From Mobula hypostoma (lineage: Eukaryota): a stretch of 64,000 nt of DNA. Below the pieces are notes generated by a model. The model saw nothing but the letters and a program-made list of their open reading frames with translations, had not been told where the DNA came from and made no database searches. Below, piece after piece: positions 10,639 to 63,920 of this stretch; the stretch's first letter is position 1, and each line of letters opens with the position of its first letter. The position numbers and the translations under genes were made by a program. The stretch covers positions 42,534,001 to 42,598,000 of the forward strand of contig NC_086108.1 in NCBI RefSeq assembly GCF_963921235.1, given 5' to 3'.

Positions 10639-10824
10639 AAACAAGAGAAGATCTGCAGATGCAGGAAATCCAAGCAACACACACAAAATGCTGGAGGAAC
10701 TCAGCAGGCCAGGCAGCATCTCTGGGGGGTGGGGGGGGAGTATAGTCGAGGTTTCAGGGCAAGAACCTTCGCCGAAGGGTCTACTGAGCCTGTTCAATTC
10801 CTCCAGCATTTTGTGTGGGGTACA
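10639..10824. mobile_element. Short Penelope pLTR-derived element with inverted arms
   Basis: cacacaaaatgctggaggaa (about 10680-10699) is inverted at ttcctccagcattttgtgtg (about 10798-10817), with a decayed hammerhead core in between. Confidence 0.75.
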
Positions 10825-17625: not shown

Positions 17626-18078
17626 CAAAAAAAAAACTAGAATGGTTTGGGTAGATAAAAACAGAGAGAACGATCTTGAGGGCCTACATCATCTAATCCT
17701 ACTACTTTTTAATGTTCTCTCATGAAAAATGCTACAAAGGAATCAAAATAATAATATGTACAACAGATTTGCTTTGAATTGAATGTAATAATTAGCTCAC
17801 TGGAGTTAGTACAAGAATAATTCAAATCTATATAACTTGAAGAATAAAATTATGTAGGAAAATATTATTTTCTCACCTTTGAGTTATAGGAAAACACTTT
17901 TTGTAGATTTCATCCAATTAAAATAATGCATCATTTATTTAACTTGATAAGCTTTTAATAAAGAATTTCTTGATGTGTGATGAATCAATGGAGACTGATT
18001 TTGACTAACATTACATTTAAAGACTACTGAAAATAAACTATTTCCATTTTTGATGGTGTTTTTCTGTTTCTACAATAG

Positions 18079-19385
18079 ATGACATATACAAAATTGAAAA
18101 TAAATATGATAGTGATGAAGAAGAAAGAATAGACACTGAAGAAATTAACTATGAACATAACCAAGGCATTTACGGTTGTAACGGTTCTGACATGCATGAT
18201 GAAACAAAACATAATTTGGAAGGCTTTCAATGTCATAACACAGCTGCCAGTACCAGTGATGAAGAACAAGAAGAGTTGCCTTATGATGGTAACTTAAAGA
18301 ATGTTAGCCATCATCAAAAAGACGAGAAAATTGATTTAGCTGATAATGTACCACCATTATCCAGAGTCCTTGGGAACCTATCAGGTCTTGGGCCTGTTAG
18401 TGGAATGAGCCAAAATATCCCACTTGGAGATCAAAAATCAATTGTAAAAAATATGTCCCCCCAACAAGAAGTGCCCGATAATGAAATGAACATAGAGGTT
18501 AAAGCTTCTAGTCATGAAAATAAAAGTGAAATGAAGGACCTTACATCAGAGCAGCCGGGTGATTTGTTGATGCCTACAAATGTAACTAAAGCAAAAAATA
18601 GCTTTCAGCTTGGTGGTGGAAGGTCAAGTATTTCTGAATCAGTTCTACATCATCCTTTTGAAGATGAGGCACTTGGTTCATCCATGTACATTGACTCTGA
18701 GACTCTACCAGAGACTTCTTTTACGGATAGTATTGAAGAAACTGTAATTATGAATCAAATTTCATCAACTTCCAATAATGATTTGTTCATGAAAAATAAC
18801 ACCATTTGTAAATCAGGAACTGATCTTTCAAAGAAAGAAGAAACAGATGGAAAATTTGGAAATGACGAACAATTGGTCCAGGTGATAAGTGATTCTTACT
18901 GCAATAACATTACTGAAGTGAATGTGGAAAAAATTGGCACTTGTAGAAGAAAGACAAGTTGTGATGTAGAGACTGCACCAAAAATAGTACAAGAAGAAAA
19001 TGCACAAGCACCACTTGGTCATAAAACTGCATCAGGAGCTGCTCAAAATCCCATGATAAAAATGAGAAGAACTATCTCTTATAATGAGATCAAATATGGC
19101 AAAGGAAAACAACATTATCCTCTACTTGACCTTTCCAAAGTGGCGCCCAAGGTCAAAATTCCCAAGAGGAATACTTACAATAATTATAAATGTCAAAGAT
19201 CCAAAAATGCAAAATCTTCCCCCAACTCATCAGAAAACCTCCACAACATTTACAAATCAACAGTAGATGTAGTGCAAAGTGTACCAGATAACGCACAACT
19301 TTCAGCAATTGCTACAGAAACGGAAGTTAATATTAAAAAACATTTGGAAGTGAATCAGACCCCTGAAAATTTCCAACAATTGCAG
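18079..19385 (+). CDS. AKNAD1: AKNAD1/AKNA-like coding exon 2 (large, 1307 nt)
   Basis: Acceptor tttctgtttctacaatag|, donor CAG|gtaat. Motifs QEELPYDG, SSISESVLHH, IDSETLPETSFTDSIEE and KYGKGKQHYPLLDLSKVAPKVKIPK match human AKNAD1 QEDLPYDG, SSISDILLHH, IDCETLPEISNADSFEE and KYGQGQVHYQLPDFSKIAPKVKIPK as recalled. Confidence 0.92.
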
Positions 19386-19699
19386 GTAATATACATTTTA
19401 TGGTCAGCTTTGCATCTTATGAAGCCAGTCATAGCTTGTATCTAATTAGTTCACTGACATCTTTATGATACCATCAGCTATACATAATCTATTCAATTTG
19501 CCGGTGCGCATGGGACACAAAAACTGCGTTTTGAATGTTTTAGTTCTGAAGTGGGGAAGAACATTTCTATTTTTCCTGGCTTCACAAGAAGGTACGTAAT
19601 GTTGTTGTTCATAGACCAATTTGACACTTCAGTCTAATCTTACTTAAACAATAGGACTAATGGAAGTTTCAGGTAATAACATGAATGCTTTCTTCCTTC

Positions 19700-20320
19700 A
19701 CTGTGTATTAGTTCCTAATAGTTATTGATGCAGGAATCCATCATATATACACTGACATGTTCTTTTGATTGACTCTGAATGAACAATATCAGCGCAGACA
19801 CCAGTGTAGATGATGGACTGCCTTCATACAATGCTTTTAACAATTGTATTCTCCAAATCTTCATTTTCATTGTAGCATTCAAAATGATTGTCAATACCTT
19901 CAGATTCTTTGTCGTTCCTAATTTGTTGAGGTAGTGAAATGGTTTCATTTTCACTCCTGGCTATTTTGGGCATTTCCAAGTGTGAATGCTTCAAACTGCA
20001 GTGTACAAAACAGTTCTGAATTGTCTTACAGCTTATTTCTCGCCAACTATCAGTGACAAAAATCACTACTTTTGAGCACATACATACACAACTTGATGTT
20101 ATTTAAAAATTGTTCACCCTAAGCACAGTGTAATAATGAATGACTACACAAGTCCATGCAAATAACACTAGTTAGAAACTGTTCGGCAACACATTCTCCT
20201 GTCTTAATTAAGCGGCATAGTAGCCCAAATAAAGTCCTAGCTATTTTCTTGATTAGTTTTTGTTCTTTAAGAGTTGTCCTAAATAAGTAGCTGCCTCGAT
20301 TAACTGCCTCGATTAACTCC
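19700..20320 (-). mobile_element. Tigger/pogo-type DNA transposon remnant
   Basis: ORF 19824-20081 contains VIFVTDSWREISCKTIQNCFVH, resembling the W..V....I.NCF motif at the end of Tigger/CENP-B-type DDE domains, followed by an acidic tail. Confidence 0.65.
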
Positions 20321-20791
20321 ATGTTTACCAAATAATTATAGTTATCAGTATTAAACACAGTTTTATTTTAAGAAATTATTGGTTATAAGGTGTGTTTGAT
20401 TATTTTATTAATGAGATGCAATTTACCTTCACGTACGTAATATAAGGGATTTTAAATCAGTTATCAATGCTGGAGCAGGTATTTTAGGTAATTTCTAGAA
20501 ACAATAAGTTGTTCTTTTTCCCTGTTTTAACCTGCTGGAGTCATGGGGTACCACAAGCACAGAAATAGACTATTCAGCCCACTTAGTCCATGGCCACCTT
20601 CCCTAACTCTGTTATTAGAGAACATTGTTAAAATTCTATTGATCATCTATTTTCTTTGATATGATTTCACATTTTAAAATTTAACACTTTTTAAAGAATT
20701 TGTCAATATTATTTTCAGCAGAATTTTTAGTCTGCAAGTTACCAGAAAAGTGCTCAGTATTTAAAATTTTATTTCCACATTTCATTCATAG

Positions 20792-20866
20792 GAAGAGTTT
20801 GACAAACTATTAATAAAGTATGCAGAAGCAGAAAATACCATTGATCAGTTGCGGTTTGGTCGTAAG
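20792..20866 (+). CDS. AKNAD1: AKNAD1/AKNA-like coding exon 3 (EEFDKLLIKYAEAENTIDQLRFGRK)
   Basis: catag|...AAG|gtatgt, phase 0-0. Matches the AKNA-domain motif LLTKYAEAENTIDQLRLGAK. Confidence 0.92.
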
Positions 20867-21616
20867 GTATGTGCATTAGATTTAGCAACAATATTCAGGT
20901 CCATTCTTTCTAATACATGAAATGAATGCTATTGTTATTTTAAATTTCTAGCATTCACACTACTTTGAATTTGAATCTTTTGATCTGTGGGATGAATTCC
21001 ATCAAACCTCTCACTAATTGTTGGTTATGGAATTTCTGATTTCATTGTTAATTTTATACGGTGACTCTGAATTGCCTTGTAATCCCAAAGTTACATAATC
21101 TGCAAATTTAATTTTGAATTGGTGAGAAAATCTATTGTTCTGATTAGAGACAATTAATAATATGTTTTGTGCAGAAAACCCTCTTTGAGTAATTGGGAAA
21201 TGTTTCTCTCGGGACTTCTGAGTTGAAAGTTCCAGCAAGTATTTCAGATATACAATATCACAATCTCATACAAAAATGCTACAAAGCGCAAATGAAATAC
21301 ATACATTTATTTGTAATTTATTGTTGTTTTGTATCCAGACACTTAGTATATTTAAATTCAAAGACACATTGACAAATCAGACACAAGGTAATCAGACACC
21401 AATATATAACTATTTAGACAACATTAAATCAAGGAATTTCATGTTTGCTACCTCAAGTGCAAAAATCTAGGACTTGAATTTACTATGAATTTGTTATTAT
21501 TAAATTATTATTATTATTAAAATTACTATGAATTTGCTCCACTGTTGTAATGTACACTGAGTATTACTTCTCAGATTTTCTGCAGATTATAGGATTGTGG
21601 ACATGAAGCAACAGAA

Positions 21617-21921
21617 CTAAAGATTAAAGTCTGTCACGAGCCTTGTGGCCCATCAGGCCGGTGCTTATGCAGGTTTCTGTGGCATGAAGCGACTGAGAGT
21701 ACAAGACTCTTTCCCCTCCCCCCGGCCCCAGATAGGACGCCAGTCTATCGCGAGATTAACCCCCAGCATTTTTTTGCCGGTACCCATTCTCAGCTGGGTA
21801 GACTGGAGCATTGTGTGGTTAAGTGCCTTGCTCAAGGAAACACATGCTGCCTCGGCTTTGGCTCGAACCCACAACCTTCAGATCGCTAGTCTGGTGCCCT
21901 AACCACTTGGCCACGTGCCAC
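21617..21921 (-). mobile_element. tRNA-derived SINE, MetaSINE-like
   Basis: Minus-strand head gtggcacgtggccaagtggttagggc, body ccagtctacccagctgagaatgggtacc...gtcgcttcatgccacagaaacc resembling the Meta domain. 11-bp TSD aagcaacagaa (21606-21616, 21922-21932). Confidence 0.75.
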
Positions 21922-22774
21922 AAGCAACAGAATAGAGATGTTTAATTTTCAAATTTATTTTTGGTTCACAATGTTTTTATTTATGTCTTTAAAAATTACT
22001 CTACTCTGTAAAAGAAATGTGAACAATTTTAGTTGCAAAAATGATATTTTTAAATGTTAATTATTTGAAATACCTCTATTGACAAACGTTGATTTAAAAA
22101 GTGGAAATGACATCACAGCTTTGACAGACAGCAAAGCCAGGAACAGGATTTGGTGGATGTTAAAACTTTCAATGGCATTTCAGCGCATGGTTTCTTCACT
22201 GTTGCGTGGAGGTCCTACTTCAGTCGGACCACCATTGGAGTCTTGAGTTCATCACGACTGCAAGGATGATCATGGAAAGACTACAGTGATGTTTCAAGCA
22301 AGGTGGGGAGGGGGCAGTGTAGTGGTGGGGCTGATCGAAGAATAAAATATTCTGAAAAGATTTCAAGTTCCTGCTGAGCTATTAACTTCCTTAGTTAATA
22401 TTGTAACCTAATGGAAGGTTTGATCATACCTTATCATTATAATTAGCACCTAATCTCTTTAAAATAATTGGGAAAATCTCCCTAGGGAGGTTAACAATAT
22501 AGAGCTGAAAGCATCGATTTAGTTAATTATGTGTCAACATTAACCAGACTTGCTTGGTATATCATGTCATTTGTTCACCAGTGCAAGAAACAGGGTGCTA
22601 AATTACAATTTAAATCTGAAGTTGATTAATAACACAAATCTGAAATGTATTGCTGTGAGATTCACATCACAGAAAGAATGCAACCATTATGTTGAGAGTA
22701 GCAAATGCAATATACATAGAGGCTCAATATAGCTAACATAAAATGTTAATTTTAACTTTTTATTCTTGTATTAG

Positions 22775-22925
22775 AGAACTGTAACTTCTGATATATCCAA
22801 ATCAAGTGAAATGATTCATTTTGGAATTTTGCCAGCACCTTGTCAATTAGCCATTTTGACAAGTCCACAACAACCCAGAGCTGAGCCGATATGCACCAAT
22901 GAATCAGTCACATTCTTCCCTTTAG
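22775..22925 (+). CDS. AKNAD1: AKNAD1/AKNA-like coding exon 4 (RTVTSDISKSSEMIHFGILPAP...)
   Basis: ttcttgtattag|...G|gtaaat, phase 0-1. Similar to the AKNA segment that follows the YAEAENTIDQLR motif. Confidence 0.85.
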
Positions 22926-23515
22926 GTAAATGAATAATCTCTAGGACACGGAATGGTATTGTGTACCTTTTAGACTTATTCATTGGAAATGTTATTGAAC
23001 AGATGGAGTAAGCATGTAAGACATTGGGATTCAAGTAGTTGCTGTAGCTCATAACTTCAAAACATCAGTTTTAAGTAATTTCATATTTTAATTTTGATCT
23101 TTTACCCTCTATAATGAAGGTATTGCTGATACCTTTATAATGTAAACTGACTGTATGAATTACTTTAAAGAACTCCTAAGTAAAACTTGCTGTATTCTCT
23201 CTAACAAGACTTCAAAAATGGAGAATTCAACTTTGTTGTTCTAAGATTCATATATCTCATGTAATAATAGTTTTTACTTTAGCTTAAATTAATCACATTT
23301 AAAGGTAGCTAAATATGTAAAAACCAGATTGAAATTTGATATTCTGACATTACAAAAATGATTACATGTTATAATGAACTTGCATTCCAGTCCAAGATGA
23401 TGAAGTGTGTTACATTACTGTGTGACTTATTTTTCTTTAGATTTAATGGAGATTTATGAATGTATTGCAAAGTTTAAAGGTTTCAGAACTAAACTGAGAA
23501 TTTTATTTTTGGTAG

Positions 23516-23667
23516 AATCAACCTGTAAAAACTGCCCCATGTCATCATCAGTAACTCCTGCTGGATCTAAACCAGATTCTTGCCAATCTATTTCTGAATT
23601 TTACAAGGCAACGGCAGAACAAATGGCTCAGCAGCTAAATAAACACATTAAGTATTTTAAATGTCAG
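23516..23667 (+). CDS. AKNAD1: AKNAD1/AKNA-like coding exon 5 (...EQMAQQLNKHIKYFKCQ)
   Basis: ttttatttttggtag|...CAG|gtaagt, phase 1-0. Confidence 0.85.
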
Positions 23668-23920
23668 GTAAGTATTTATTTGAAACATAGCACAGCAAAC
23701 TATTCAACTCTAGTGATAAATATAGGATGAGAAGAAAACTCTAAATATAATGTGAAAGTACTTCTCAAATTCTATATAAATCAAGTTTAAATACTTTATT
23801 GGTTAATTTAATTAGATTAATAACATAGTCTGACACTAGAATTCTGAACCAGACACTCTCTTCCAAGCTCTGCATTGGAAAGCGATTAATAGGTAGAGAG
23901 AGAAAAACATTAAGGATGCC

Positions 23921-24715
23921 TGTAAGCACAAGTGCTACACCTGTCCCTACACCTCCTCTCTTGCCACCATTCAGGGCCCCAAACAATACTTCCAAGTGAG
24001 GCAACACTTCACTTGTAAGTCTGTTGGGGTCATCTATTGCATCCAGTGCTCCCGGTGTGGCCTCCTCTACATCGGTGAAACCCAACGCAGATTGGGGGAC
24101 CGCTTCGTCGAGCACCTCCACTCTGTCCGCCAAAACAGACAGGATCTCCCAGTAGCCACCCACTTCAACTCTGCTTCCCACTCCCATTCAGATGTGTCCA
24201 TACATGGCCTCCTCTACTGCCATGATGAGGCTAAACTCAGGTTGGATGAGCAACACTTCATATACCATCTAGGTAGTCTCCAGCCCCTTGGTATGAACAT
24301 AGAATTTTCCAACTTCTAGTAATTCCCTCCCCCTCCCTTCCCCTATCCCTATGTCACTCTGCCCCCTCCCCCAGCTGCCTACCTCCTCCCTCTTGGTTCC
24401 GCCTCCTTCTACTATCCATTGTGTTTTCCCCTATTCTTTCTTCACCTTTCCTGCCTATCACCTCCCTGCCTCCCTTCCCCCACCCCTTTATCTTTCCCCT
24501 TACTGGTTTTTCACCTGGAACCTACCAGCCTTCTCCTTCCCACCCTCCCCCCACCTTCTTTATAGGGCCTCTGCCTCTTCCCCCTTCAGTCCTGACGAAG
24601 GGTTCGGGCCCGAAACGTCGACTCATTGTTTCCACGGATGCTGCCCGACCTGCGGAGTTCCTCCAGCATGTTGTGAGTGTTGCTTTGACCCCAGCATCTG
24701 TAGATTATTTTGTGT
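23921..24715 (+). mobile_element. Penelope-like retroelement (Neptune-type), 5'-truncated
   Basis: ORF 23996-24319 is a GIY-YIG domain preceded by a CK.KCYTC linker. The 3' pLTR carries a hammerhead. 11-bp TSD ttaaggatgcc (23910-23920, 24716-24726). Confidence 0.92.
24588..24623 (+). ncRNA. Minimal type I hammerhead ribozyme motif in PLE terminal repeat
   Basis: AGTC-CTGACGA-A-GGGT(TCGG)GCCC-GAAA-CGTC^-GACT: stem I AGTC/GACT, conserved CUGANGA and GAAA cores, stem II, palindromic ACGU stem III and GUC cleavage triplet. Confidence 0.8.
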
Positions 24716-26151
24716 TTAAGGATGCCCTCATTACCCACATTGCCTCATTGCCTCACTGAAGGAATGTATCACCTTCACCGATTCCTGATATTCTTTGGCT
24801 CATGGAGCATTCAGAGTGGAATTGAGAATCTTGAGGCTGTACATTAGGAGTAGACAGAGGATTGGCTTAATCAGCAGTAGGAGCATACTACGCCACACTT
24901 AGGGCTCATTAGAACATTTAGAACCTGAATGGAAGTTGGTCAACCTTGATCCCAAGGGGCTTGCATAACAAGGAAAAGAAATACCACCATTATCTTGTGT
25001 TGCACGTAAGAGTGCTAGTGTCTTTAATTTCAAAAAACATCAGTTTACAAGGACTCTCCTTTTAATTACTTTTCTAAAAGGAATTGCTTTGAGACCAGAA
25101 TCCTGCACTAAAATAAATCTGTTAATGTGATCTTTATAACACGTACACATTTACATTGATTAAAGTATTAAATATTATTAGAATATTTGGCCTATCTGAA
25201 ACATTTACTTTGGTTGCTGTAGATGCTTGTGATTTGTTAATACAATGGTTTCCATAGTTACTTGAAGCCTTTCTGTTGCAATATTGAATAGTCTTTGAAA
25301 TACATATGCACTTGCTGTTTATTCCTTTGACAATAGATATCTGACTCTAAAGCCGGGGAAAATATCTGAGCTGCATTTTAAACCTGCATGTTTAAGTTAA
25401 ATTCAGTGTAGATGGATTAAGTAGTAAGTTTCATTGAGCAAATTAACTTGTATATAAGTGGACAAATATACAAATGGAGACATAAATATAGGCCATCTCC
25501 AGATAAACAACAGGTTCTGTTTTTACTGGTGACCCATCAGTCAATTTTGTCCATTAATTTAGAAAATAACTTAAATTCTTTTGTATGCCCAGAATAAGGA
25601 ACTCATGTTTGATATGTTATGGACTCCATTGCAATTTTAACACTTGGCGAAGCAGAAAATGTAATATAACATTCTTACCTTGTGAACAACATAAAGTATT
25701 AAAACCTGTGTGAACATTTAATATTCACGCTCATAGGACGAGATGTTTCAATCCCTTTGATAAGTAGATCTTCTCTGACTATGCATTTTATATATTTCAT
25801 CTATTCCTTTATATAGCATTTCAAAGAAGTTGTGCCACATGAAATTTAATGCAATACACACAATGGGGTGTCTATAGTGCATTGACATTACCCTTATTTC
25901 TTCTTAGAAGCTTATCAAAGCATGATTTTCCAATATGTTAGTGTGCAAGTTTTAATGTGGATGAAAATATTTTGTGGTAGAATACCCTGCTAATGTGAGT
26001 TTAATGTAGTCTGTCCATAAATTAGGAGCTAAATATTTGTTGAGGAAAGTTATCTTTGTACAATGTATCTTAAAAATATAAACAAATCCTGGATCATTCC
26101 TTTTCAGTTAATGTTTTCTTGTTTATTGTATATCTTTTTTATCTCTTATAG

Positions 26152-26211
26152 GTTGAAGACTTTAAGAACTTCCTTAATTTTAAATCAGCTCCTATGGAAG
26201 ATAAAATAGAG
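26152..26211 (+). CDS. AKNAD1: AKNAD1/AKNA-like coding exon 6 (VEDFKNFLNFKSAPMEDKIE)
   Basis: Long pyrimidine tract ending ttatag|, donor GAG|gtaatt, phase 0-0. Confidence 0.85.
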
Positions 26212-26742
26212 GTAATTCTTTAATAATCATCTTCAAGTATTTTGATAATAAGAAAAGTCTGTTTACCATAGAAATAAAGTCATACTTTTTTCTGAATTTC
26301 ATGTTGTAAGCCATGAATAACATTCAAATTGTTACATTAATAAAACATATTTTGCAACATTCTAGGAATTATGAATATATTCTACTCAATTTACTTCAGT
26401 AATAAGTACATTTATGTTAAGTTAAATAACTTCTATTCAAAGACATTTGTTTTTAGTAATGCATTACAAAGAACATGAACAAGATAGTCCATCAATAGGC
26501 ATATTATTTTTATCTAGTAACATAACATGCTATAGATAGAGTTACAAATCTTGGTCTACAATTTGTCCACAATATCCTGTGGCATAATAAAAATTACACT
26601 TGGTGAATATGAATTTGAAAGAAAGTCTTCTCATTCTCACACTGTGGAAATAACCTGAGGTCTTTACATAATTGGCAAATGGAAATGAATGTCATAGTCT
26701 ATATCATACGTACACATTTTAATTGTGTATTTCCCACAACAG

Positions 26743-26876
26743 GCAATGAAGGAACTGAGAGATGGCCTAGACAAGCTAGAAAGGACCTACATTGCAACTA
26801 AAGATGAGCACAGTAATTTTCAACGTCGCTGCTATTTGGAAAAAAATACTACTGTTGGAGAGTTTGACCCAGATAG
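26743..26876 (+). CDS. AKNAD1: AKNAD1/AKNA-like coding exon 7 (AMKELRDGLDKLERTYIATKDEH...VGEFDPDR)
   Basis: ttcccacaacag|...AG|gttaga, phase 0-2. Matches AKNAD1 LELLEQNFLATKDKH...VGDFDPER. Confidence 0.92.
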
Positions 26877-27582
26877 GTTAGAAATAAATAAATGGGGTTT
26901 GGCACTCATACATATGATCTTTAATGAGTTATGATTTTGACAGATTTACATGCCATTTGTAAAATCTATTTTTTGTTTGAAAGGGATGATCGATTTCAAG
27001 TTTATTCAAATAATCTGAATTGGATATAATTATAAGTATTGCAAGTGAATCTAAAGTATTTTTGGAGCAAATCATAGTTAATTGCACTTTGAACAACTCT
27101 TCATCTACTTATAAATTTGTTTGTAATGGATACAGAGACTCCTATTATAGAGGAATTATTTATAATGATAAAATGATTACCACTTTATGCTTTTCATTTT
27201 CCCCATTTAAACAAGAAATACTTTCCATGGATCAACGGATTCCAATAAAAATGCTGTTCTTTTTTTTCCATGGACTAACATGTTTTTAACCCTTTACTAT
27301 GGTATAAATTCAGAGATTCGAATGCAGTAAGTGCATATGTTCAAATAGTTACTTGATATGTGTCAGAATAACTGTCTTCAGGGTATCTGATCATTTTTAG
27401 TATTATGGGAAGGTGAGTGTGCATAGCAGGGGCATCATAGCTAAATGTATTCTTATTTTATAACTATATAGATTCTCAAAAGGGTTCAAAACAAGCTAGA
27501 ATATTTTATAATATTGTACTGGATTTTCAGGATTCATTTGTTCTCTGTGTTAACCAAGGGTAAAATAAATCATTATCACAAT

Positions 27583-27960
27583 GATGTAGCAGTTAGCACG
27601 ACACTATTACAGTTTGGACCGTTGGAGTTCGGCGTTCAATTCCGACTGTTGTCAGTAAGGAGTCTGTACATCCCCCTGTTGAATGCGTGGGTTATCTCCG
27701 GGTGCTCGGGTTTCCTGACGGACCGGTTAATTGGTCATTGTAAATTGTCTTGTGATTATCCTAGGGTTAAATCAGGAGTTACATCTGGGATCCTGATGAA
27801 GGGTCTGAGCTCGAAACGTCGACTGTTTATTCTTTTCCATAGATGTTGCAGGACCTACTGAGTTCCTCCAGCATTTTGTGTGTTAAATCGGGGGTTGCTG
27901 GGCAGTGCAGCTTTAAGGGTCAGAAGGGCCTATTTGATGCTGTATCTCAATAAATAAATA
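27583..27960 (+). mobile_element. V-SINE interrupted by a Penelope pLTR fragment (about 27775-27881)
   Basis: tRNA-like head (gttcaattcc) and V-domain gcgtgggttatctccgggtgctcgggtttcct. The insert carries ctgatgaagggtctgagctcgaaacgtcgact and is flanked by gttaaatc repeats. Confidence 0.75.
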
Positions 27961-32824: not shown

Positions 32825-34110
32825 AATAAACTCTCCTCGAGCTTCCAGCCAGTACAGTTATTGATTATAACCAACATTTCGATGACAAACTCTGCCATCT
32901 TCACCAGGGATAATGCTTGGGCGTGGTATTTATACCCCCCCCATGTCCATCCCTTCTGATTAATTAGCCCTCATCCAATCAAGTTTCTGCTTTCCCACCT
33001 CATTTACAATTGAATTCCAGTTCTTACTTAGAGTAAGAACTCTAACTTACTGCCACCATCATGACTCTTAATGTAGAGCGGTTCTTTCTACTTTGATTAA
33101 CCGTGCAAAACCTATTATGGACTCAGAGATTCTCCCCGAGGAAATAAGACAATTACACACAACATTCCTACAGAATGGCTGCAAGGCAAAGGAAATGAAT
33201 CGGGCTCTTAGAAGGGCCGATGGAAAAACCAGGAAGCCTAACAGCGAGGAGGAACCTGTCACTACCGCCTATAGTCCCTATATTTCCACTGTTTCTGGAA
33301 GGATGGCCAGGATCCTGAAGAAATACCAGATTAATACCATCTACAAACCCCTAAGGAAGCTCAAATCACACATCAAAGTTGCTGGTGAACGCAGCAGGCC
33401 AGGCAGCATCTCTAGGGAGAGGTACAGTCGACGTTTCGGGCCGAGACGTTGACTGTACCTCTTCCTAGAGATGCTGCCTGGCCTGCTGCGTTCACCAGCA
33501 ACTTTGATGTGTGTTGCTTGAATTTCCAGCGTCTGCAGAATTCCTCGTGTTTAGGAAGCTCAAATCGCTGCTTATGCGGGTCAAAGATGACCTGGGACTC
33601 AGGTCAGCTGGCGTTTACAGGGTTCCCTGTGAATGCAGAACAGCGTATATCAGTCAGACAGGACACAAGTGGAAACGTGCATCGAGGAGCACAGGAAGTG
33701 TATCCATTTGGGTTTCCCAGAAAATTCGGCTATAGCAGAAATGGCTACAGGATTGACTTTGACGGCACTAAACTACTGTGCAGCGCCAATGGCTTTTGAT
33801 ACCACCTGGTAAAGGAAGCCATTGAAATAAAACTAGAGAAAAGGGATTTTAATGAAAACGAAGGTCTCACTCTAGGTAAGAACTGGAATTCAGTTGTAAA
33901 CAAGGTGAGACAGCAGAAACCTGATTGGGTGGGACGAATCAATCAGGAGGGATGGTCAACAGGAGTATAAATACCACTGGACTAGACATGCCTAGGTATA
34001 TTCCCTAATGAAGATGGCAGAGTTTTTCATCAAAACATCAGTTATGCTTGATATCTGTGCCTGGCTGGAGTTTAGTCCTCATACAGGCCGGGAAAGCACT
34101 AGATTCTTTA
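32825..34110 (+). mobile_element. Penelope/Poseidon-type retroelement with inverted 5' pLTR, RT thumb/linker and GIY-YIG remnant
   Basis: ORFs LINRA...PYISTVSGRMARILKKYQINTIYKP and GVYRVPCECRTAYISQTG. 32830-33040 is an inverted copy of 33865-34070. Both ends carry decayed hammerhead motifs. Confidence 0.85.
33368..33552. mobile_element. Palindromic Neptune-type pLTR element nested inside the Poseidon-type ORF
   Basis: acacatcaaagttgctggtgaacgcagcaggccaggcagcatctctagg...ggtacagtc is followed by its reverse complement. 14-bp TSD aggaagctcaaatc (33354-33367, 33553-33566). Confidence 0.9.
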
Positions 34111-35049: not shown

Positions 35050-35265
35050 GGAGACACAAGGGACTTCAGATGTTGGAATCTGAAGCAGCACACAAAATGA
35101 GCTCGGGGAGCTCAGCCGATCAGAGGAAAATGGGCAATCAACATTTCAGTTTGGGATCTTTTATCTGTACTAGGCAGACCAGATGAAGAGCTTCAACCTG
35201 AAGTATTGACAGTCCATTTCCCTTCGTAGATACCCTATGATCTGAGTTCCTCCAGATCTTTTTGA
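35050..35265. mobile_element. Old palindromic pLTR-derived element
   Basis: Decayed inverted arms (ggggagctcag / ctgagttcctcc) with two back-to-back decayed hammerhead cores. Confidence 0.55.
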
Positions 35266-47745: not shown

Positions 47746-48351
47746 GTAATATTTACTCAAAACTTACAACTACCTTTGATAAAGGTAGACAACATACAAT
47801 ATAAGATATTCATTTTAATAGGCTGAATGCAGTGTCAGCCAATCGATTCTTTTTAATTTTTTAATTGAGCAAAAACACAATTAATGTGGGCAGGTGTAAA
47901 AATGAGTCCACAAACTATATGTTTTTAAGTTGTACTTTCATTTTGTGAAGTGTAGTAGCTTTAATGAAGTCATGTAATGTGTATTTAGATACTGCATGCT
48001 GATTTGCTTACTCTGCTTGTGAATAAGTCATGGATCTACAACAAGAAATAGCAAATTTCAAGCAAAATTGGATGAAGATTTTAGGAGTAAGCAAAAACTG
48101 TAAAGAAGATAGTGTGGGAATTCCAAATGTAAAGGGCTTAGTCACTGAAGGTACAGCTGCCAAGTGTTGTAGTAGTGTACAGATTAAAGTTGGGTTGCTT
48201 AAGAGGCCAAAACTGGGGAAACAAAGATTTGGAAGAAAACATTTCATTGAATACATGTCAAATGTACAGCTCACCATCAAGTATTTGTAAATGTTCTATT
48301 CTTTTTCAGTTATCTGAAAAACATTCATGGATACTTTATATATGGTATCCT

Positions 48352-50332
48352 GGCATACAAGGAAGCAAAAATTAGTGGGAAGACAGAGGATTGGGAAGTT
48401 TTTAAAGCCTTACAAAAGGAAACTAAGAAGGTCATTAAGAAGGAAAAGATTAACTATGAAAGGAAGCTAGCAAATAATATCAAAGAGGATACTAAAAGCT
48501 TTTTCAAGTATATAAAGAGTAAAAGACACGTGAGAGTAGATATAGGACCGATAGAAAATGATGCTGGAGAAATTGTAATGGGAGATAAGGAGATGGCAGA
48601 GGAACTGAACGTGTATTTTGCATCAGTCTTCACTGAGGAAGACATCAGCAGAATACCGGACACTCAAGGGTGGCAGGGAAGAGAAGTGTGCGCAGTCACA
48701 ATTACGACAGAGAAAGTACTTAGGAAGCTGATTAGTCTAAAGGTAGATAAACCTCCCGGACCAGATGGAATGCACCCACGTGTTCTGAAGGAAGTAGCTG
48801 TGGAAATTGCGGAGGCACTAGCGATGATCTTTCAAAAAGTGGATAGATTCTGGCATGGTTCCAGAGGACTGGAAGATTGCAGATGTCACTCTGCTATTTA
48901 AGAAGGGGGCAAGGAAGTAAAAAGGAAATTATAGACCTGTTAGCTTGACATCAGTGGTTGGGAAGTTGTTGGAGTCAATTGTCAAGGATGAGGTTACAGA
49001 GTACCTGGAGGCATATGACAAGATAGGCAGAACTCAGCATGGATTCCTTAAAGGAAAATCCTGCCTGACAAACCTATTACAATTTTTTGAGGAAATTACC
49101 AGTAGGCTAGACAAGGGAGATGCAGTGGATGTTGTGTATTTGGATTTTCAGAAGGCCTTTGACAAGGTGCTACACATGAGGCTACTTAACAAGATAAGAG
49201 CCCATGGAATTATGGGAAAGTTACATACGTGGATAGAGCATTGGCTGATTGGCAGGAAACAGAGAGTGGGAATAAAGGGATCCTATTCTGGTTGGCTGCC
49301 AGTTATCAGTGGTGTTCCACAGGGGTCCGTGTTGGGGCCGCGTCTTTTTACATTGTACATCAACAATTTGGATTATGGAATAGATGGCTTTGTGGCTAAG
49401 TTTGCTGACGATATGAAGATAGGTGGAGGGGCCAGTAGTGCAGAGGAAACGGAGAGTCTGCAGAGAGACTTGGAGACTTGGATAGATTGGAAGAATGGGC
49501 AAAGAAGTGGCAAATGAAGTACAATGTTGGAAAGTGTATGGTTATGCACTTTGGCAGAAGTAATAAATGGGCAGACTATTATTTAAATGGAGAAAAAATT
49601 CAAAGTTCTGAGATGCAACGGGACTTGGGAGTCCTTGTACAGGATACCCTTAAGGTTAACCTCCTGGTTGAGTTGGTAGTGAAGAAGGCGAGTGCAATGT
49701 TGGCATTCGTTTCTAGAGGAATAGAGTATAGGAGCAGGGATGTGATGTTGAGGCTCTATAAGGTGCTGGTGAGACCTCACTTGGAGTACTGTGGGCAGTT
49801 TTGGTCTCCTTATTTAAGAAAGGATGTGCTGATGTTGGAGAGGGTACATTCACTAGAATGATTCTGGGAATGAGAGGGTTAACATATGAGGACTATTTGT
49901 CCGTTCTTGGACTGTATTCCTTGGAGTTTAGAAGAATGAGGGGAGACCTCATAGAAACATTTCGAATGTTGAAAGGCATGGACAGAGTGGATGTGGCAAA
50001 GTTGTTTCCCGTGATGGGGGAGTCTAGTACGAAAGGGCATGACTTAAGGATTGAAGGGCGCCCATTCAGAACAGAAATGCGAAGAAATTTTTTTAGCCAG
50101 AGGGTGGTGAATCTATGGAATTTGTTGCCACAGGCGGCAGTGGAGGCAAAGTCATTGGGTGTATTTAAGGCAGAGATTGATAGGTATCTGAGTAGCCAGG
50201 GCATCAAAGGTTATGGTGAGAAGGTGGGGGAGTGGGACTAAAGAGGAGAATGGATCAGCTCATGATAAAATGGCGGAGCAGACTCGACGGGCCGAATGGC
50301 CGACTTCTGCTCCTTTGTCTTATGGTCTTAGG
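48352..50332 (+). mobile_element. CR1 LINE, 5'-truncated, frameshifted ORF2 (tether, RT, C-terminus)
   Basis: ORFs with PGPDGMHPRVLKE, QHGFLKGKSCLTNL, YLDFQKAFDKV, SGVPQGSVLGP, KFADD. 3' tail cttatggtctta. Confidence 0.95.
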
Positions 50333-55548: not shown

Positions 55549-56907
55549 CATCTATATATGTTTAATGATCCATTTGAAGAAACCTTGTTTCTGTAAAGAT
55601 ATCAGGCTTCCACTCTAATATTTGTGCTATTTCTTTGTGGCTGGACTCGTTTGCACGAGTGTTCCTTTCAGTTTTGCTGTAACTTCCTTGCTTGTTTCTC
55701 ATTGTCTTTCATACCACATTTCAACAGTCATCTGCTATGAGCAACAACCAGAGGGTTCCTCAAGCAGAATTTCAGTGGCATTACACTCCATTGATAGAAT
55801 AGCATGTATATGTTTTATACTTCCAGCATTTTATATTCAAGCAAAATTTTTGAGTACCTCTTGGCAACCACCTTTGAAAGGAACAGCTCACTTGTCATCC
55901 CTCAATGACCCAATTAGCTCCCAGAGGCCAGTTCCCCGATTAGTCTCCGAGTCATATCTCTCAATTAGCGTGTTATTGGCATTGTTATTACTACCTAAAC
56001 TCTACTGATGTGAACAGTTGCCTAGGTAATTGACTTGGGTTGTGTACTAGTTCTGTTATTTACCATTGACTTGGACTTGAGAGTCCTAATCAGTGTCACA
56101 CTGTACATAACTAAATAACCCAGTAAATGTCAATATGTTTTTTGCTTCAAGCTCTTATGGTAATATGTTGTATATTCTTACCATCTTTGGGTGAAGAAGT
56201 TTTCTTTATTTGATTTCTAGTGGCTATCTTATCATTATGTCGAGTGATAAATATGGCTCATGGATGGAACGTTTTCCTTACACTTACCTTGCTAAACCCT
56301 TTCATTAGCTTAAATGCTAAAGTTAATTCCTTTATTTTCTCCTTTCTATAGAAAAGGTCCCTCCCTCTTCCATGATAAATTAATCTCAGTTTTGATAACA
56401 TCCTTTTGAATATTCTTTGTACCATCTCCTATGCCGTTATGTCCTTTCATTACTAAGTGGATCAGAACTATCCAGTACTCAACTGTGCTCTAACCAAAGT
56501 TTAATACAATCTCAATGTACATATGTGCTACTCAATAGCATCTCTCTAGAAATGAACCACATAACTTGGGTTGTTTTAATTAAGACTTTAGTATCCAGTG
56601 CCATTACTTATAGTGATTATTATCATTCGTATCTGAAAATTTGCTCCTTTGCACCCTTTGAACTCCAGTTATCTGGCAGCCTTATTCTAACCATCAAAAT
56701 GCATCATACATTTCTCTATACTTAACTTCATTTGCTAAAAATACAACCACGTTGCCAGCTTATTTAAGACTAGTATTTTGTCACCTTCTTCCTTTGTATC
56801 AAATTAATAGTAGACTCAACTAGATCACAATCTTGATATACTAAAGAGAGAAACAAGTAGTGAATTGGATGGCCTAGCTTCATTCTGCAGATTCTTTCTT
56901 GCATTGC

Positions 56908-57020
56908 AACGCACAAAATGCAGGTCGGGCAGCATCTATGGAAACAAATAAACAGTCAATGTTTTGGTCTGAGACCCTTCTTCAGGACTGAAGAAAGGTC
57001 TTGGCCCGAGGTGTCGACTA
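56908..57020. mobile_element. pLTR-derived fragment with two back-to-back decayed hammerhead motifs
   Basis: Minus strand cagtcctgaagaagggtctcagaccaaaacattgactg abuts plus strand ctgaagaaaggtcttggcccgaggtgtcgact. Confidence 0.7.
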
Positions 57021-57189
57021 TTAAAGTTGTAAGTTGGAAATAGACATGGATCCAGCTCATTGCTATCTCCCTCTCCTTTCCTTCTGGATGTAGCACTACA
57101 TGCTGAGCTCACAATCAATTGCTGATTGAGTCATACCTTTCACTCTCAATGTGACAACATAGCCTGTAAACATAACTCTTGGCTTGATC

Positions 57190-60100
57190 ACGAGAGGGAA
57201 AGCAGCCAGAAGTTGTGATACATGTTGGTACCAACGACATAGGCAGGAAGAGGGATGAGGTCCTGAAGTGTGAGTTTCAGGAACTAGGCAGAAGGCTGAA
57301 GAACAGGACCTCAAGGGTGGCGTTCTCAGGATTGCTGCCAGTGCTACGTGATAGTGATGGTAAGAGTTGGAGGAGATGGCAGTTGAATGCGTGGCTGAGG
57401 AGTTGGTGCAGGGAGCAGGGTTTTAGATGTTTGGATCATTGGGATCTCTTCTGGGGAAGGTGGGACCTGTACAGATTGGATGGGTTGCACCTGAGCCCGA
57501 GGGGGAGCAATATCCTTGCAGGTAGGTTTGTTAGCATGGTTTGGGAGGGTTTAAACTAATTTGCAAGGGGGATGGGACCCGGAGCGATAAAGCAGTGAAA
57601 GAAGTGCATGGAGTAAAGCCAGATCTAACATATAGAGAGGCTTTGAGGAAAGAGAAGCAGAATAAACGGTGTAAAGGTAGTAAGGTAGAAGGGCTGAAAT
57701 GTGTGTACCTCAATGCAAGAAGCATCAGGAACAAAGGTGAAGAACTGAGAGCTTGGATACATACATGGAATTATGATGTAGCGGCCATTACAGAGAATTG
57801 GCTGGCACCAGGGCAGGAACGGATTCTCAATATTCCTGGATTTCAGTGCTTTAAAAGGGATAGAGAGGGGGGAAAAGGGGAGGAGGGGTGGCATTACTGG
57901 TCTGGGATACTATTACAGCTACAGAAATGGTGGATAATGTAGCAGGATCCTCAACAAAGTCAGTATGCATGGAAATCAGGAACAGGAAGGGAGCAGTTAC
58001 TCTATTGGGGGAATTCTATAGGCCCCTTGGTAGCAGTAGAGATACAGAAGAGCAGATTGGGAGGCAGATTTTGGAAAGGTGCAGAAATAACAGGGTAGTT
58101 ATCATGGGTGACTTTAACTTCCCCAATATTGATTGGCACCTGATTAGTTCCAAGGGTTGGATGGGGCAGAGTTTGTTAAGTGGGTTCAGGACGGATTCTT
58201 GTCACAGTATGTGGACAGGCCAACTAGGGGGAAAGCCATACTAGATCTAATACTAGGTAATGAACGGGGTCAGGTCACAGATCTCTCAGTGGGTGAGCAT
58301 CTGGGGGACAGTGACCACCACTCCCTGGCATTTAGCATTATCATGGAAAAGGATAGAATCAGAGAGACAGGAAAATTTTTAATTGGGGAAGGGCAAATAT
58401 GTGAGAAAAGCAAGAAGGGGGCATGAGAAGGCCTTGACGAGTAGGGTAAAGGAAAACCCCAAGGCATTCTTCAATTATGTGAAGAACAAAAGGATGACAG
58501 GAGTGAAGGTAGGACCGATTAGAGATAAAGGTGGGAAGATGTGCCTGGAGGCTGCGGAAGTGAGCGAGGTCTTCAATAAATACTTCTCTTTGGTATTCAC
58601 CAATGAGAGGGAACTTGACGATGGTGAGGACAATATGAGTGAGGTTGATGTTCTGGAGCATGTTGATATTAAGGGAGAGGAGGTGTTGGAGTTGTTAAAA
58701 TACATTAGGATGGATAAACCCCCAGGGCCTGACAGAATATTCCCCAGGCTGCTCCATGAGGCGAGGGAAGAGATTGCTGAGCCTCTGACTAGGATCTTTA
58801 TGTCCTTGTTGTCCACGGGAATGATACTGGAGGATTGGAGGGAGGCCAATGTTGTTCCCTCGTTCAAAAAAGGTTGTAGGGATAGTCCGGGTAACTATAG
58901 ACCAGTGAGCCTTACGTCTGTGGTGGGAAAGCTGTTGGAAAAGATTCTTAGAGATGGGTCTATGGGCATTTAGAGAATCATGGTCTAATCAGGGACAGTC
59001 AGCATGGCTTTGTGAAGGGCAGATTGTGTCTAACAAGCCTGATACAGTTCTTTGAGGAGGTGACCAGGCATATAGATGAGGGTAGTGAAGTGGATGTGAT
59101 CTATATGGATTTTAGTAAGGCAGTTGACAAGGTTCCACACGATAGGCTTATTCAGAAAGTCAGAAGGCATGGGATCCAGGGAGTTTGGCCAGGTGGATTC
59201 AGAATTGGCTTGCCTGTAGAAGGCAGAGGGTCGTGATGGAGGGAGTGCATTCAGATTGGAGGATTGTGACTAGTGGTGTCCCACAAGGATCTGTTCTGGG
59301 ACCTCTACTTTTCGTGATTTTTATTAACAACCTGGATGTGGGGGTAGAAGGGTGGGTTGGCAAGTTTGCAGACGACACAAAAGTTGGTGGTGTTGTAGAT
59401 AGTGTAGAGGATTGTGGAAGATTGCAGAGGGACATTGATAGGATGCAGAAGTGTGCTGAGAAGTGGCAGATGGAGTTCAACATGGAGAAGTGTGAGGTGG
59501 TACACTTTGTAAGGACAATCTCCAAGGCAGAGTACAAAGTAAATGGCAGGATACTTCGTAGTGTGGAGGAGCAGAGGGATCTGGGGGTACATGTCCACAG
59601 ATCCCTGAAAGTTGCCTCACAGGTAGATAGGGTAGTTAAGAAAGCTTATGGGGTGTTAGCTTTCATAAATCGAGGGATAGAGTTTAAGAGTCGCTACGTA
59701 ATGATGCAGCTCTATAAAACTCTGGTTAGGCCACACTTGGAGTACTGTGTCCAGTTCTGGTTGCCTCACTATAGATAGGAAGGATGTGGAAGCATTGGAA
59801 AGGGTACAGAGGAGATTTACCAGGATGCTGCCTGGCTTAGAGAGTATGCATTATGATCAGAGATTAAGGGAGCTAGTGCTTTACTCTTTGGAGAGAAGGA
59901 GATGAGAGGAGACATGATAGAGGTGTACAAGATAATGAGAGGAATAGATAGAGTGGATAGCCAGCGCCTCTTCCCCAGGGCACCACTGCTCAATACAAGA
60001 GGACATGGCTTTAAGGTAAGGGGTGGGAAGTTCAAGAGGGATATTAGAGGAAGGTTTTTTACTCAGAGAGTGGTTGGTGCGTGGACTGCACTGCCTGAGT

Positions 60101-60258
60101 CAGTGGTGGAGGCAGATACACTAGTGAAATTTAAGAGACTACTAGACAGGTATATGGAGGAATTTAAGGTGGGAGGTTATATGGGAGGCAGGGTTTGAGG
60201 GTCGGCGCAACATTGTGGGCCGAAGGGCCTGTAATGTGCTGTACTATTCTATGTTCTA
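57190..60258 (+). mobile_element. Near full-length CR1 LINE: ORF1 SGNH esterase domain, ORF2 endonuclease and RT (frameshifted, internal deletion at about 58400)
   Basis: HVGTNDIG...DGLHL (esterase); YLNARSIRNK, GDFNFP, SDHH (APE); PGPD, DFSKAVDKV, GVPQGSVLGP, KFADD (RT); ttctatg tail. Confidence 0.95.
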
Positions 60259-60412
60259 TCACTTGCTCCAGAACTTTTATTTTCTCATTTAACTTGCTTA
60301 TTACCACATAAAAGGAATCCATGTTGAAAATTTTAGGTACATGCTTAATTTCTAAATTCAGAAATTTATTTGAAATTTCAGTTCTTTAATTGGCAGTCTT
60401 TTCTTTATCCAG

Positions 60413-60550
60413 ATTTCACATCTGAACACAAATCTGGACAGAGCAATCGAGGCTGCGCGTAAGATGAAGAAAACAACCAGGAGAATGGTTAACATTTTGT
60501 CTGCTGACTTGGCCAGGACTGAGCACTATAAATATTTGTATGATTTTTAG
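60413..60550 (+). CDS. AKNAD1: AKNAD1/AKNA-like last coding exon 20 (ISHLNTNLDRAIEAARKMKKTTRRMVNILSADLARTEHYKYLYDF*)
   Basis: tcttttctttatccag|, phase 0, TAG stop. Matches the family C-terminal helix (AKNAD1 LNSALDHALRTATILKETTDQMIKTIAEDLAK). Confidence 0.9.
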   Translation: MSHLNTNLDRAIEAARKMKKTTRRMVNILSADLARTEHYKYLYDF

Positions 60551-60822
60551 TATTTTCTTTGTAGTGCAGACTTTCCTTGTGCAATGATGTGCAATATTAT
60601 GTATCAAAATCTTGTAATATATAGAGTAAGAATATATCACCTTGATGAAATAATTTTCAGTATTCAAGGCTATTATGCAATTTTGGACTTTTTCCATTAT
60701 TGTTTCAGTGATTTCTGATAATCATATAAATACTAATATGCATCTACTTGTGCCTGGGTCTCTATAGCATTGGTAACTAGAGAAGGCACTACAACTAGAC
60801 TTTGGGAGAGTTGTTGTAATTA

Positions 60823-61498
60823 CCATAGACAATAGGTGCAGGAGTAGGCCATTCGGCCCTTCGAGCCAGCATCGCCATTCACTGTGATCATGGCTGATCA
60901 TCCACAATCAGTATCCAGTTCCTGCCTGATCCCCATAACCTTTGATTCTGCTATCTTTAAGAGCTCAATCCATCTCTTTCTTGAAAGCATCCAGAGACTT
61001 GGTCTCCACAGCCTTCTGGGGCAGAGCATTCCATATATCCACCACTCTCTGGGTGAAAAAGTTTTTCCTCAACTCTGTTCTAAATGGCCTACCCCTTATT
61101 CTTAAACTGTGGGCCTCTGGTTCTGGACTCACCCATCAGCGGGAACATACTTCCTGCCTCCAGCGTGTCCAATCCCTTAATAATCTTAACTATTTCAATC
61201 AGATCCCCTCTCAGGCTTCTAAGTTTCAGAGCATACAAGCCCAGTCGCTCCAATCTTTCGACATATGACAGTCCCGCCAACCCAGGAATTAACCTTGTGA
61301 ACCTATGCTTCAACCTCGTGAACCTTGTGAACCTCAATAGCAAGAATGTCCTTCCTCAAATTTGGAGACCAAAACTGCACACAGTACTCCAGGCCTGGTC
61401 TCACCAGGGCTCTGTACAGCTGCAGAAGGACCTCTTTGCTACTATACTCAATTCCCCTTGTTATGAAGGTCAGCATGCCATTAGCTTTCTTCACTGCC
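60823..61498 (-). mobile_element. CR1 LINE 3' fragment just downstream of the AKNAD1 stop
   Basis: ORFs AVKKANGML.FI.RGIEY...FWSPNLRKD and RFTRLIPGLAGLSYVERLERLGLY. Confidence 0.9.
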
Positions 61499-62386
61499 TC
61501 TAGCAAACTCTTTGATGAGGATAGCTGACATGGCTTAGGACAAACCTGTCAAAAAAAGATTACGTGCTTGGCAATTGTGTCTTTTGCTGATCAAATCACC
61601 CCAGAATGCCAATTTCCTTTTGCTGTTCCACCACAGGATTATCCAAAATGTTACTGAATGTTAACCTGCACTATACTGTAGAATATGATAAGTGTCCATT
61701 GCAAATGAAGCAAACTCTTTGATGAGGATAGCTGACAAACCTGTCAAAAAATGATTATTAGCCATCACTGCCAATAATGAGGAAGTCAATCTAAATGTGA
61801 CTGTGCAAGTTAGTACTATTAACCATTCTTAATAAGGGAAAGCTCACGTTTGGCCTCCATGGCACAAAGAAAGTATTTTTCTATCAAAAATCATGTTATA
61901 TATGATTAACACAGCTCAATTCCCACCTTTCTCATCATTTCTGTTCAAATCTCTTTAATTGGATTTCTGCCCTCTCCTTTGCACAAAGGATGCCCAGTTT
62001 AGTACTCTTCTGTGAAGTACTTGTTGTGTTATCCTGCCTTGCCCTTTTCAGTATCCTTCAGATGATTGACAATGTCATCCTTTCTGACTATGTAAAGTAC
62101 CTCAGTTATGCATTACAGTCCAGCTCCATTACATTACCCTCAACTTTACTCCTTATTTTATCTCTGCCAACAACGGTCTCTTAACATGTGGTTACCTTAA
62201 GAATGCACTCAAGTTGTCATTGAGATTTTCCTTATTTACATCATCACTGCCTCTGACTCTACTTACCTGTGGGTGCCAGAACATCACTGCCTTAGATAAT
62301 GTTTAATATATTTTTAGATTATGAGAACACTCAGTCCTTGTTTATTGTCATTTAGAAATGCATGCATTAAGAAATGATACAATGTG

Positions 62387-63920
62387 CAAAGGATGTATTA
62401 GTGATAATTTTTCAAAACTCGTTAGATTCTGGACTAGTTCCTGAGGATTGGAGGGTGGCTAATGTAACCCCAATTTTTAAAAAAGGAGGGAGAGAGAAAC
62501 CGGGGAATTATAGACCGGTTAGCCTAACGTCGGTGGTGGGGAAACTGCTGGAGTCAGTTATCAAGGATGTGATAACAGCACATTTGGAAAGCGGAGAAAT
62601 GATCGGACAAAGTCAGCATGGATTTGTGAAAGGAAAATCATGTCTGACGAATCTCATAGAATTTTTTGAGGATGTAACTAGTAGAGTGGATAGGGGAGAA
62701 CCAGTGGATGTGGTATATTTGGATTTTCAAAAGGCTTTTGACAAGGTCCCACACAGGAGATTAGTGTGCAAACTTAAAGCACACGGTATTGGGGGTAAGG
62801 TATTGGTGTGGGTGGAGAATTGGTTAGCAGACAGAAAGCAAAGAGTGGGAATAAACGGGACCTTTTCAGAATGGCAGGCGGTGACTAGTGGGGTACCGCA
62901 AGGCTCAGTGCTGGGACCCCAGTTGTTTACAATATATATTAATGACTTGGATGAGGGAATTAAATGCAGCATCTCCAAGTTTGCGGATGACACGAAGCTG
63001 GACGGCAGTGTTAGCAGTGAGGAGGATGCTAAGAGGATGCAGGGTGACTTGGATAGGTTGGGTGAGTGGGCAAACTCATGGCAGATGCAATTTAATGTGG
63101 ATAAATGTGAAGTTATCCACTTTGGTGGCAAAAATAGGAAAACAGATTATTATCTGAATGGTGGCCGATTAGGAAAAGGGGAGGTGCAACGAGACCTGGG
63201 TGTCATTGTACACCAGTCATTGAAAGTGGGCATGCGGGTATAGCAGGCGGTGAAAAAAGTGAATGGTATGCTGGCATTCATAGCGAGAGGATTCGAGTAC
63301 AGGAGCAGGGAGGTACTACTGCAGTTGTACAAGGCCTTGGTGAGACCACACCTGGAGTATTGTGTGCAGTTTTGGTCCCCTAATCTGAGGAAAGTCATCC
63401 TTGCCATAGAGGGAGTACAAAGAAGGTTCACCAGATTGATTCCTGGGATGGCAGGACTTTCATATGAAGAAAGACTGGATGAACTGGGCTTGTACTCGTT
63501 GGAATTTAGAAGATTGAGGGGGGATCTGATTGAAACGTATAAGATCCTAAAGGGATTGGACAGGCTAGATGCAGGAAGATTGTTCCCGATGTTGGGGAAG
63601 TCCAGAACGAGGGGTCACAGTTTGAGGATAGAGGGGAAACCTTTTAGGACCGAGATTAGGAAAAACTTCTTCACACAGAGAGTGGTGAATCTGTGGAATT
63701 CTCTGCCACAGCAAACTGTTGAGGCCAGTTCATTGGCTATGTTTAAGAGGGAGTTAGATATGGCCCTTGTGGCTACAGGGGTCAGGGGGTATGGAGGGAA
63801 GGCTGGGGTGGGGTTCTGAGTTGGATGATCAGCCATGATCATAATAAATGGCGGTGCAGGCTCGAAGGGCCGAATGGCCTACTCCTGCACCTATTTTCTA
63901 TGTTTCTATGTTTCTATGTT
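62387..63920 (+). mobile_element. Young 5'-truncated CR1 LINE (RT nearly intact; one in-frame TAG at 63241)
   Basis: ORFs 62374-63243 and 63250-63819 are in the same frame and carry all RT motifs. Tail (tttctatg)n. Confidence 0.95.

Follow-up and report, generated by a model that had tools for sequence, protein, structure and literature searches.

The window, a stretch of 64,000 nucleotides of the Mobula hypostoma genome (NC_086108.1, positions 42,534,001 to 42,598,000), carries the gene aknad1 on its forward strand. A tblastn search places 20 aknad1 coding segments, in order and on the + strand, between 15811 and 60547. The large exon at 18054-19388 (445 codons) matches a protein of Mobula birostris at 97% identity and one of Hypanus sabinus at 91%, and the close relatives of the protein it encodes bear the names aknad1 or AKNAD1. 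Coding exon 5 (23516..23667, +) is followed by a GT donor after 23667, and coding exon 6, only 60 nt long (26152..26211, +), is placed by tblastn and by contigs. In two contigs (X1 record 2 and X4 record 15) a piece of exactly 60 nt, the length of exon 6, joins exon 5 to exon 7. They come from one study, from runs guessed to be RNA, and their organism differs from the exons of the window at one listed base. Intron 5 is spliced normally in that organism, which may lack the insertion described below. Other repeats lie within the gene and beyond its last coding exon. On the − strand, 21858-21920 gives a tRNA-like Rfam match at the gathering threshold within a highly repeated stretch, and probably represents the head region of a SINE of tRNA origin. 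Several LINE-type endonuclease and reverse transcriptase (RT) frames, CR1-like by eye, lie on the + strand at 48251-50241 and 57188-63819, in aknad1 introns and beyond the last coding exon.

Intron 5 holds a 5'-truncated copy of a Penelope-like element of about 800 bp (23921..24715, +), 93% identical over 769 nt to a sister copy at 10371-9604 and flanked by 11-bp target-site duplications at 23910..23920 and 24716..24726 (both +). Family homology begins at 23919, two bases being common to the element and the duplication, as the loose ends of family reads indicate. The left part of the copy, 23921..24319 (+), is the C-terminal remnant of an open reading frame (ORF), 132 codons with no internal stop, whose translation contains a CX3CxxC linker finger and a GIY-YIG endonuclease with an internal CxxC. 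It matches the C-terminal end of an RT and GIY-YIG protein of 889 aa at 44% identity (E 4e-34), shares 62-86% identity with eight ray protein records among 15 matches, and has GIY-YIG atlas neighbours at 0.96; its Pfam GIY-YIG match (E 6e-4) falls under the curated cut-off. RT is absent from the focal copy and present in relatives, where P0135 scores 29.7 bits against RVT_1 for a cut-off of 29.6. The linker finger reads CKHKCYTC in the focal copy and CKRKCYTC in the sister, both of the CX2-5CxxC type, which the accessible text of 10.1101/2021.04.23.441226 gives as a mark of Neptune and Nematis elements that is missing in Penelope and Poseidon. The translation of the remnant agrees with a Neptune/Nematis-type EN+ element, with the histidines placed by eye and the Pfam match below its cut-off, and we class the element as such by its linker finger, not by an RT tree. 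Poseidon had been entertained as its clade and was abandoned once the finger was found.

The element continues past the reading frame into a pseudo-LTR (pLTR) stretch and ends in a tail (24624..24715, +), so that the copy stops 96 nt beyond the predicted cut site of the ribozyme motif that lies between them. This motif starts 269 nt past the GIY-YIG stop and ahead of the tail, which is a terminal-repeat position. Shorter family copies have 3' ends near 24669-24684 and make a second 3' end class, which fits the optional tail of 30-40 bp described in the available portion of PMC11167929.

The motif itself, at 24588..24623 (+), is a minimal type I hammerhead without a helix III loop, with a predicted cut after 24619. 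Its positions are numbered here by the standard hammerhead convention. The 5' arm of stem I (24588-24591) leads into the C3-A9 box (24592-24598) and an extra A between A9 and 10.1 (24599). Stem II (24600-24603/24608-24611) consists of three G-C pairs and one U-G pair closed by a 4-nt loop, and its G10.1-C11.1 pair is G24600-C24611. G12-A15.1 (24612-24615) then runs into the self-complementary ACGT at 24615-24618, ACGU in the RNA, which is all there is of stem III, and C17 (24619) precedes the 3' arm of stem I (24620-24623). All 12 core positions are kept (C3-A9, G12-A15.1, U16.1 and H17), and stems I and II pair at four positions of four each, giving a helix I of 4 bp. A strict descriptor, with stems of at least 4 and a palindromic helix III, finds this one match on both strands of the window against 0.0075 expected per window from 400 dinucleotide shuffles, a count that rules out a chance origin; a loose descriptor finds two matches against 0.055 expected.

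The initial annotation had described a minimal hammerhead of Penelope-like terminal-repeat origin, lying in sense orientation between AKNAD1 coding exons 5 and 6, and each part of that description stands. The sequence is exact, the motif falls between the end of exon 5 at 23667 and the start of exon 6 at 26152, and it has the endonuclease remnant upstream, the tail downstream and the 11-bp duplication around the whole. The Infernal search that the annotation proposed came out otherwise: no Rfam 15 hammerhead model reaches its gathering score in the window, and none matches up to E 10 in 24400-24800 (401 nt). This silence suggests that Rfam holds no model for the form of hammerhead that lacks a helix III loop. 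Four weak lncRNA matches in Rfam (E 0.9-5) were dismissed as composition noise, and pattern scans of metagenome contigs and viral contigs returned no match to the motif.

The element belongs to a numerous family. A profile seeded from six of the family alignments yields 15 alignments in the window, of which the ten inside aknad1 (six sense, four antisense) are too few for a strand test. Ten copies were aligned, leaving out 2121+, 10788+, 33433+, 35171+ and 35171- as tail-only or very decayed. The whole core survives in three of the ten and core plus palindrome in two. Paired cells make up 74% in the hammerhead register against 20-45% in slid controls, with the structure derived from one row, and these mostly decayed copies contain no compensatory double change. 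The only other sense copy in the window with an intact core lies in intron 7 at 27789..27824 (+), 3.2 kb downstream of the focal motif and two exons away, where a minimal hammerhead with 12 of 12 core positions and a mismatch in stem I sits on a short Penelope tail; no other candidate for a dimer partner in cis was found. This tail (27766-27889) begins at hammerhead stem I, inside another repeat, with an apparent 8-bp duplication by eye. A contig of run X8 covers it to 27841, which suggests a greater age than that of the focal copy, and its core is still intact. Five pairs of Penelope tails are inverted head to head (2003-2182, 10656-10823, 33365-33535, 35067-35263 and 56888-57022), with junctions in or near the hammerhead region.

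Run X8 also bears on the age of the insertion. Its record 23 joins 21922-23919 to 24743-25426, and 71 + 31 of some 2,700 letters differ (about 4%). Most simply, this sequence would be an empty site accompanied by an independent indel of 17 nt where a short repeat occurs locally; since the relative's allele also lacks the roughly 17 nt beside the site, it may instead have undergone a deletion. The site is empty in the one relative with a bridging contig. In the same run the element has a summed contig depth of 2.6-5.1 x 10^5 and the adjacent bins one of 7-9; the figure is not a copy number, but it marks a very large, extremely repeated family.

The focal and sister copies differ by 6.7%, or 3.3% per copy, at which an intact core is expected in 67% of cases without selection. 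The intact core therefore needs no selection, since the copy is young. All five CpGs of the motif are intact, against 7 of the 15 sister-shared CpGs elsewhere in the focal copy (nominal P 0.022), which leans against pure drift and is given little weight because the motif was picked for its intactness and the numbers are small. In the reading frame, raw counts, to which no weight is given, are 7 synonymous and 13 nonsynonymous codon differences in 132.

Would such a motif cut RNA? Folding models, which take in secondary structure only, ignore tertiary contacts and were run without a known active hammerhead as control, are suggestive only and favour inactive forms of both the monomer and the dimer. 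Within 24570-24640 the RNA folds no better than its shuffles (z 0.25) and does not form the hammerhead shape. In the bare 36-mer, G5-G8 pairs with 15.2-17 at a probability above 0.98. The C at position 7 makes 24594-24597 (G5-G8) complementary to 24616-24619 (15.2-17), and a self-inhibited fold is predicted. The probability of stem II is at most 0.006 in all five contexts of 71-900 nt, and sliding windows give stem I a mean probability of 0.007-0.14. Some placements of short windows do permit the stems, which speaks on the other side: at 60 nt stem I reaches 0.64 and stem II 0.86. Dimers are predicted to fare no better: the active homodimer is computed at −14.7 kcal/mol, whereas its inactive counterpart comes to −36.9 and a pair of separate monomers to −23.8, and the active heterodimer with the 27789-27824 copy at −8.0 versus −32.2 for its inactive form. 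A perfect 12-nt palindrome (24603-24614) overlaps stem II and G12-A14, and is predicted to form a strong inactive dimer in longer contexts.

Published activity of comparable ribozymes is low. As far as the accessible text of PMC4209133 goes, cleavage by a single minimal hammerhead was undetectable and dimers and trimers were weak. A review, in the portion available, holds that the hammerheads of Penelope-like elements (PLEs) probably do cleave in dimeric form, though very slowly (PMC6765202), a point against complete inertness. The Anolis Penelope hammerhead, in the available text of PMC11167929, cleaved only when the element protein was added, was dispensable for insertion in vitro and had no RNA-seq reads ending at its site. 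The statement in the initial annotation that such motifs are thought to cleave efficiently mainly as dimers agrees with the single minimal hammerheads of PMC4209133. Its suggestion that the motif could cleave the nascent aknad1 RNA finds no such backing: the copy is solitary, it is predicted to misfold, a published monomer gave no detectable cleavage, and the site appears empty in a relative.

The motif is the terminal-repeat hammerhead of a 5'-truncated Penelope-like copy that landed in aknad1 intron 5, and very probably it is inert there, a passenger that is lost when the intron is spliced out. The anatomy of the element, its duplication, its position and orientation, the high repetition of its family and the vacant site in the relative are direct observations from which this account starts. 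Its remaining steps follow published elements and the folding models. Target-primed reverse transcription would have initiated within the tail, some 96 nt downstream of the hammerhead, and broken off in the endonuclease part of the element. The hammerhead would serve the element's own tandem transcripts, in which a second copy, and probably the element protein, would complete helix III. In a lone intronic copy the core is predicted to be caught in inactive pairings and to meet no effective partner by the time splicing removes the intron.

The borders of the pseudo-LTR deserve attention in their own right. This pyrimidine-rich stretch of 271 nt (24319..24589, +) has a donor-like GT at the end of the reading frame (24319) and an acceptor-like AG at 24588-24589, the latter overlapping the 5' arm of stem I. 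Both dinucleotides are invariant in the three aligned copies, one of them about 69% identical. The 20 nt upstream of the AG contain 19 pyrimidines, against 16 of 20 at the acceptor of exon 6, and the focal element has another four acceptor-like AGs. The D. virilis Penelope has an intron that stops at the 5' boundary of helix I (PMC4209133), and a pLTR intron may be common to further PLEs (PMC8557442), as described in the accessible parts of both papers. By this analogy 24319-24589 may be the element's own intron. The AG could also be used as an acceptor in the host transcript. With a donor-like site at 24673 it would delimit a cryptic 83-nt exon from 24590, whose second codon, read in the frame of exon 5, is a stop. 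Three ray gene models, P0122, P0125 and P0136 (annotated as mucin-2, divergent protein kinase domain 1C and chitinase domain-containing 1), consist mostly of element sequence, through either exonisation or annotation error, and P0125 has unrelated sequence after the element's last codons.

Three other readings were weighed against the inert passenger. It is quite unlikely that a noticeable share of aknad1 pre-mRNA is cut conditionally, with the help of the element protein or of RNA from another copy. The core is whole at 12 of 12 positions, the five CpGs of the motif are kept, a second intact-core sense copy lies downstream at 27789-27824, the family is abundant in runs guessed to be RNA, and protein-assisted cutting is known for the Anolis element (PMC11167929). 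Against such help, the active dimers are predicted to lie 22-24 kcal/mol above the inactive ones, the downstream partner is two exons away with a mismatched stem I, and the Anolis site, in the text available, has no RNA ends (PMC11167929). The minimal RNA for Anolis insertion, moreover, is given there as reaching ORF position 172, past the ends of genomic copies, so by a cross-clade comparison the focal copy may miss part of the protein-binding site. It is quite unlikely that the copy acts on its host by splicing and not by cutting, through the 83-nt exon between the AG at 24588-24589 and the donor-like site at 24673. The pyrimidine tract is richer than that of the true exon 6 acceptor, the AG and the upstream GT are unchanged in all three aligned copies, the D. 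virilis intron ends at the equivalent place (PMC4209133, accessible text), and the run of P0125 beyond the last codons of the element fits use of the donor. Yet the extra exon is missing from both spliced contigs, though contigs drop rare forms; the focal element offers four further acceptor-like AGs; and the conserved GT and AG can be explained otherwise, by the end of the reading frame and by stem I.

The most remote of the three holds that the motif is a domesticated, host-selected intronic ribozyme comparable to the conserved intronic type I hammerheads of amniotes, which we take to be of the HH9/HH10 kind. Its sense orientation, intronic position and intactness would suit this reading, and hammerheads in the introns of RECK, CTCL and DTNB provide a precedent in the accessible text of PMC6155905. 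The empty site in a relative about 4% diverged largely refutes it, the motif still lies inside a whole element fragment, and the features of canonical intronic type I hammerheads are wanting: there is no Rfam hammerhead match, and helix I has 4 bp versus 6 bp with loop contacts. Domestication is accordingly judged extremely unlikely.

By itself the focal copy, read as an inert passenger, matters little, since it adds a further copy to a motif on record since 2014. It is a clean test case all the same: young, bounded by a duplication, matched by a relative with an empty site and placed in an expressed gene, it bears on the question of whether the hammerheads of Penelope elements cut RNA in vivo at all. 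If such copies cut or mis-splice host transcripts, gene expression in rays would be burdened unseen, or else regulated, by a very large repeat family. A broader speculation, which we hold to be decidedly unlikely, is that sense Penelope tails in ray introns act as gated traps in which stem I serves as a splice acceptor as well and self-pairing keeps the core off. If true, element protein or splicing factors would toggle between a poison exon and cleavage, and aknad1 would be one among very many genes tuned while the family was active.

Comparison with known systems places the ray motif closely. The non-LTR retrozymes share type I hammerheads related to Penelope pLTRs and are present in the one chondrichthyan sampled, according to the available text of bioRxiv 10.64898/2026.07.22.740005. 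They are tandem hammerhead units and non-coding, whereas the ray motif is a single unit with an endonuclease remnant, and no long direct repeat was found in 18000-27300 that could represent the at least two tandem units of a retrozyme. The amniote intronic hammerheads of RECK, CTCL and DTNB (PMC6155905, accessible text) resemble it in being type I and lying, in sense orientation, in introns of vertebrate genes. They are canonical, have tertiary contacts and are conserved across classes, while the ray motif is minimal, inside an element and missing in a relative.

Nearer still is the Anolis carolinensis Poseidon element PAc (Frangieh et al. 2024, PMC11167929, as far as its text was accessible), with its pLTR hammerhead, AT-rich target and two 3' end classes. 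There too the distance from cut site to end is fixed, 85-92 nt by subtraction versus 96 nt in the ray, with reverse transcription starting 111-118 nt into the ORF and a cut site at 26. The ray element differs in its Neptune/Nematis CX2-5CxxC linker, the focal copy lacks RT, and the ray hammerhead is known from sequence alone.

The closest match is the min-HHR of metazoan PLE pseudo-LTRs (Cervera and De la Pena 2014, PMC4209133), whose accessible text names Neptune elements and fishes among the carriers. Both are type I, lack a helix III loop and have a palindromic 15.1-16.1; both have the extra base between A9 and 10.1, the G10.1-C11.1 pair and a helix I within the 4-5 bp given for the class; and min-HHRs, too, occur mostly as single copies on truncated elements. 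Helix II differs, with 4 bp in the ray versus 7-8 bp in the Schistosoma families. Neither of the two supplementary files of that paper that were searched contains a ray or shark name, and no literature on Penelope hammerheads in rays was found in a search outside which most subscription papers lie. Within the literature searched, rays may thus be an unreported host group for the min-HHR. The motif in aknad1 intron 5 carries every testable sequence feature of that class and, judged by these features, is an ordinary min-HHR of a Penelope-like element, of a kind known since 2014.
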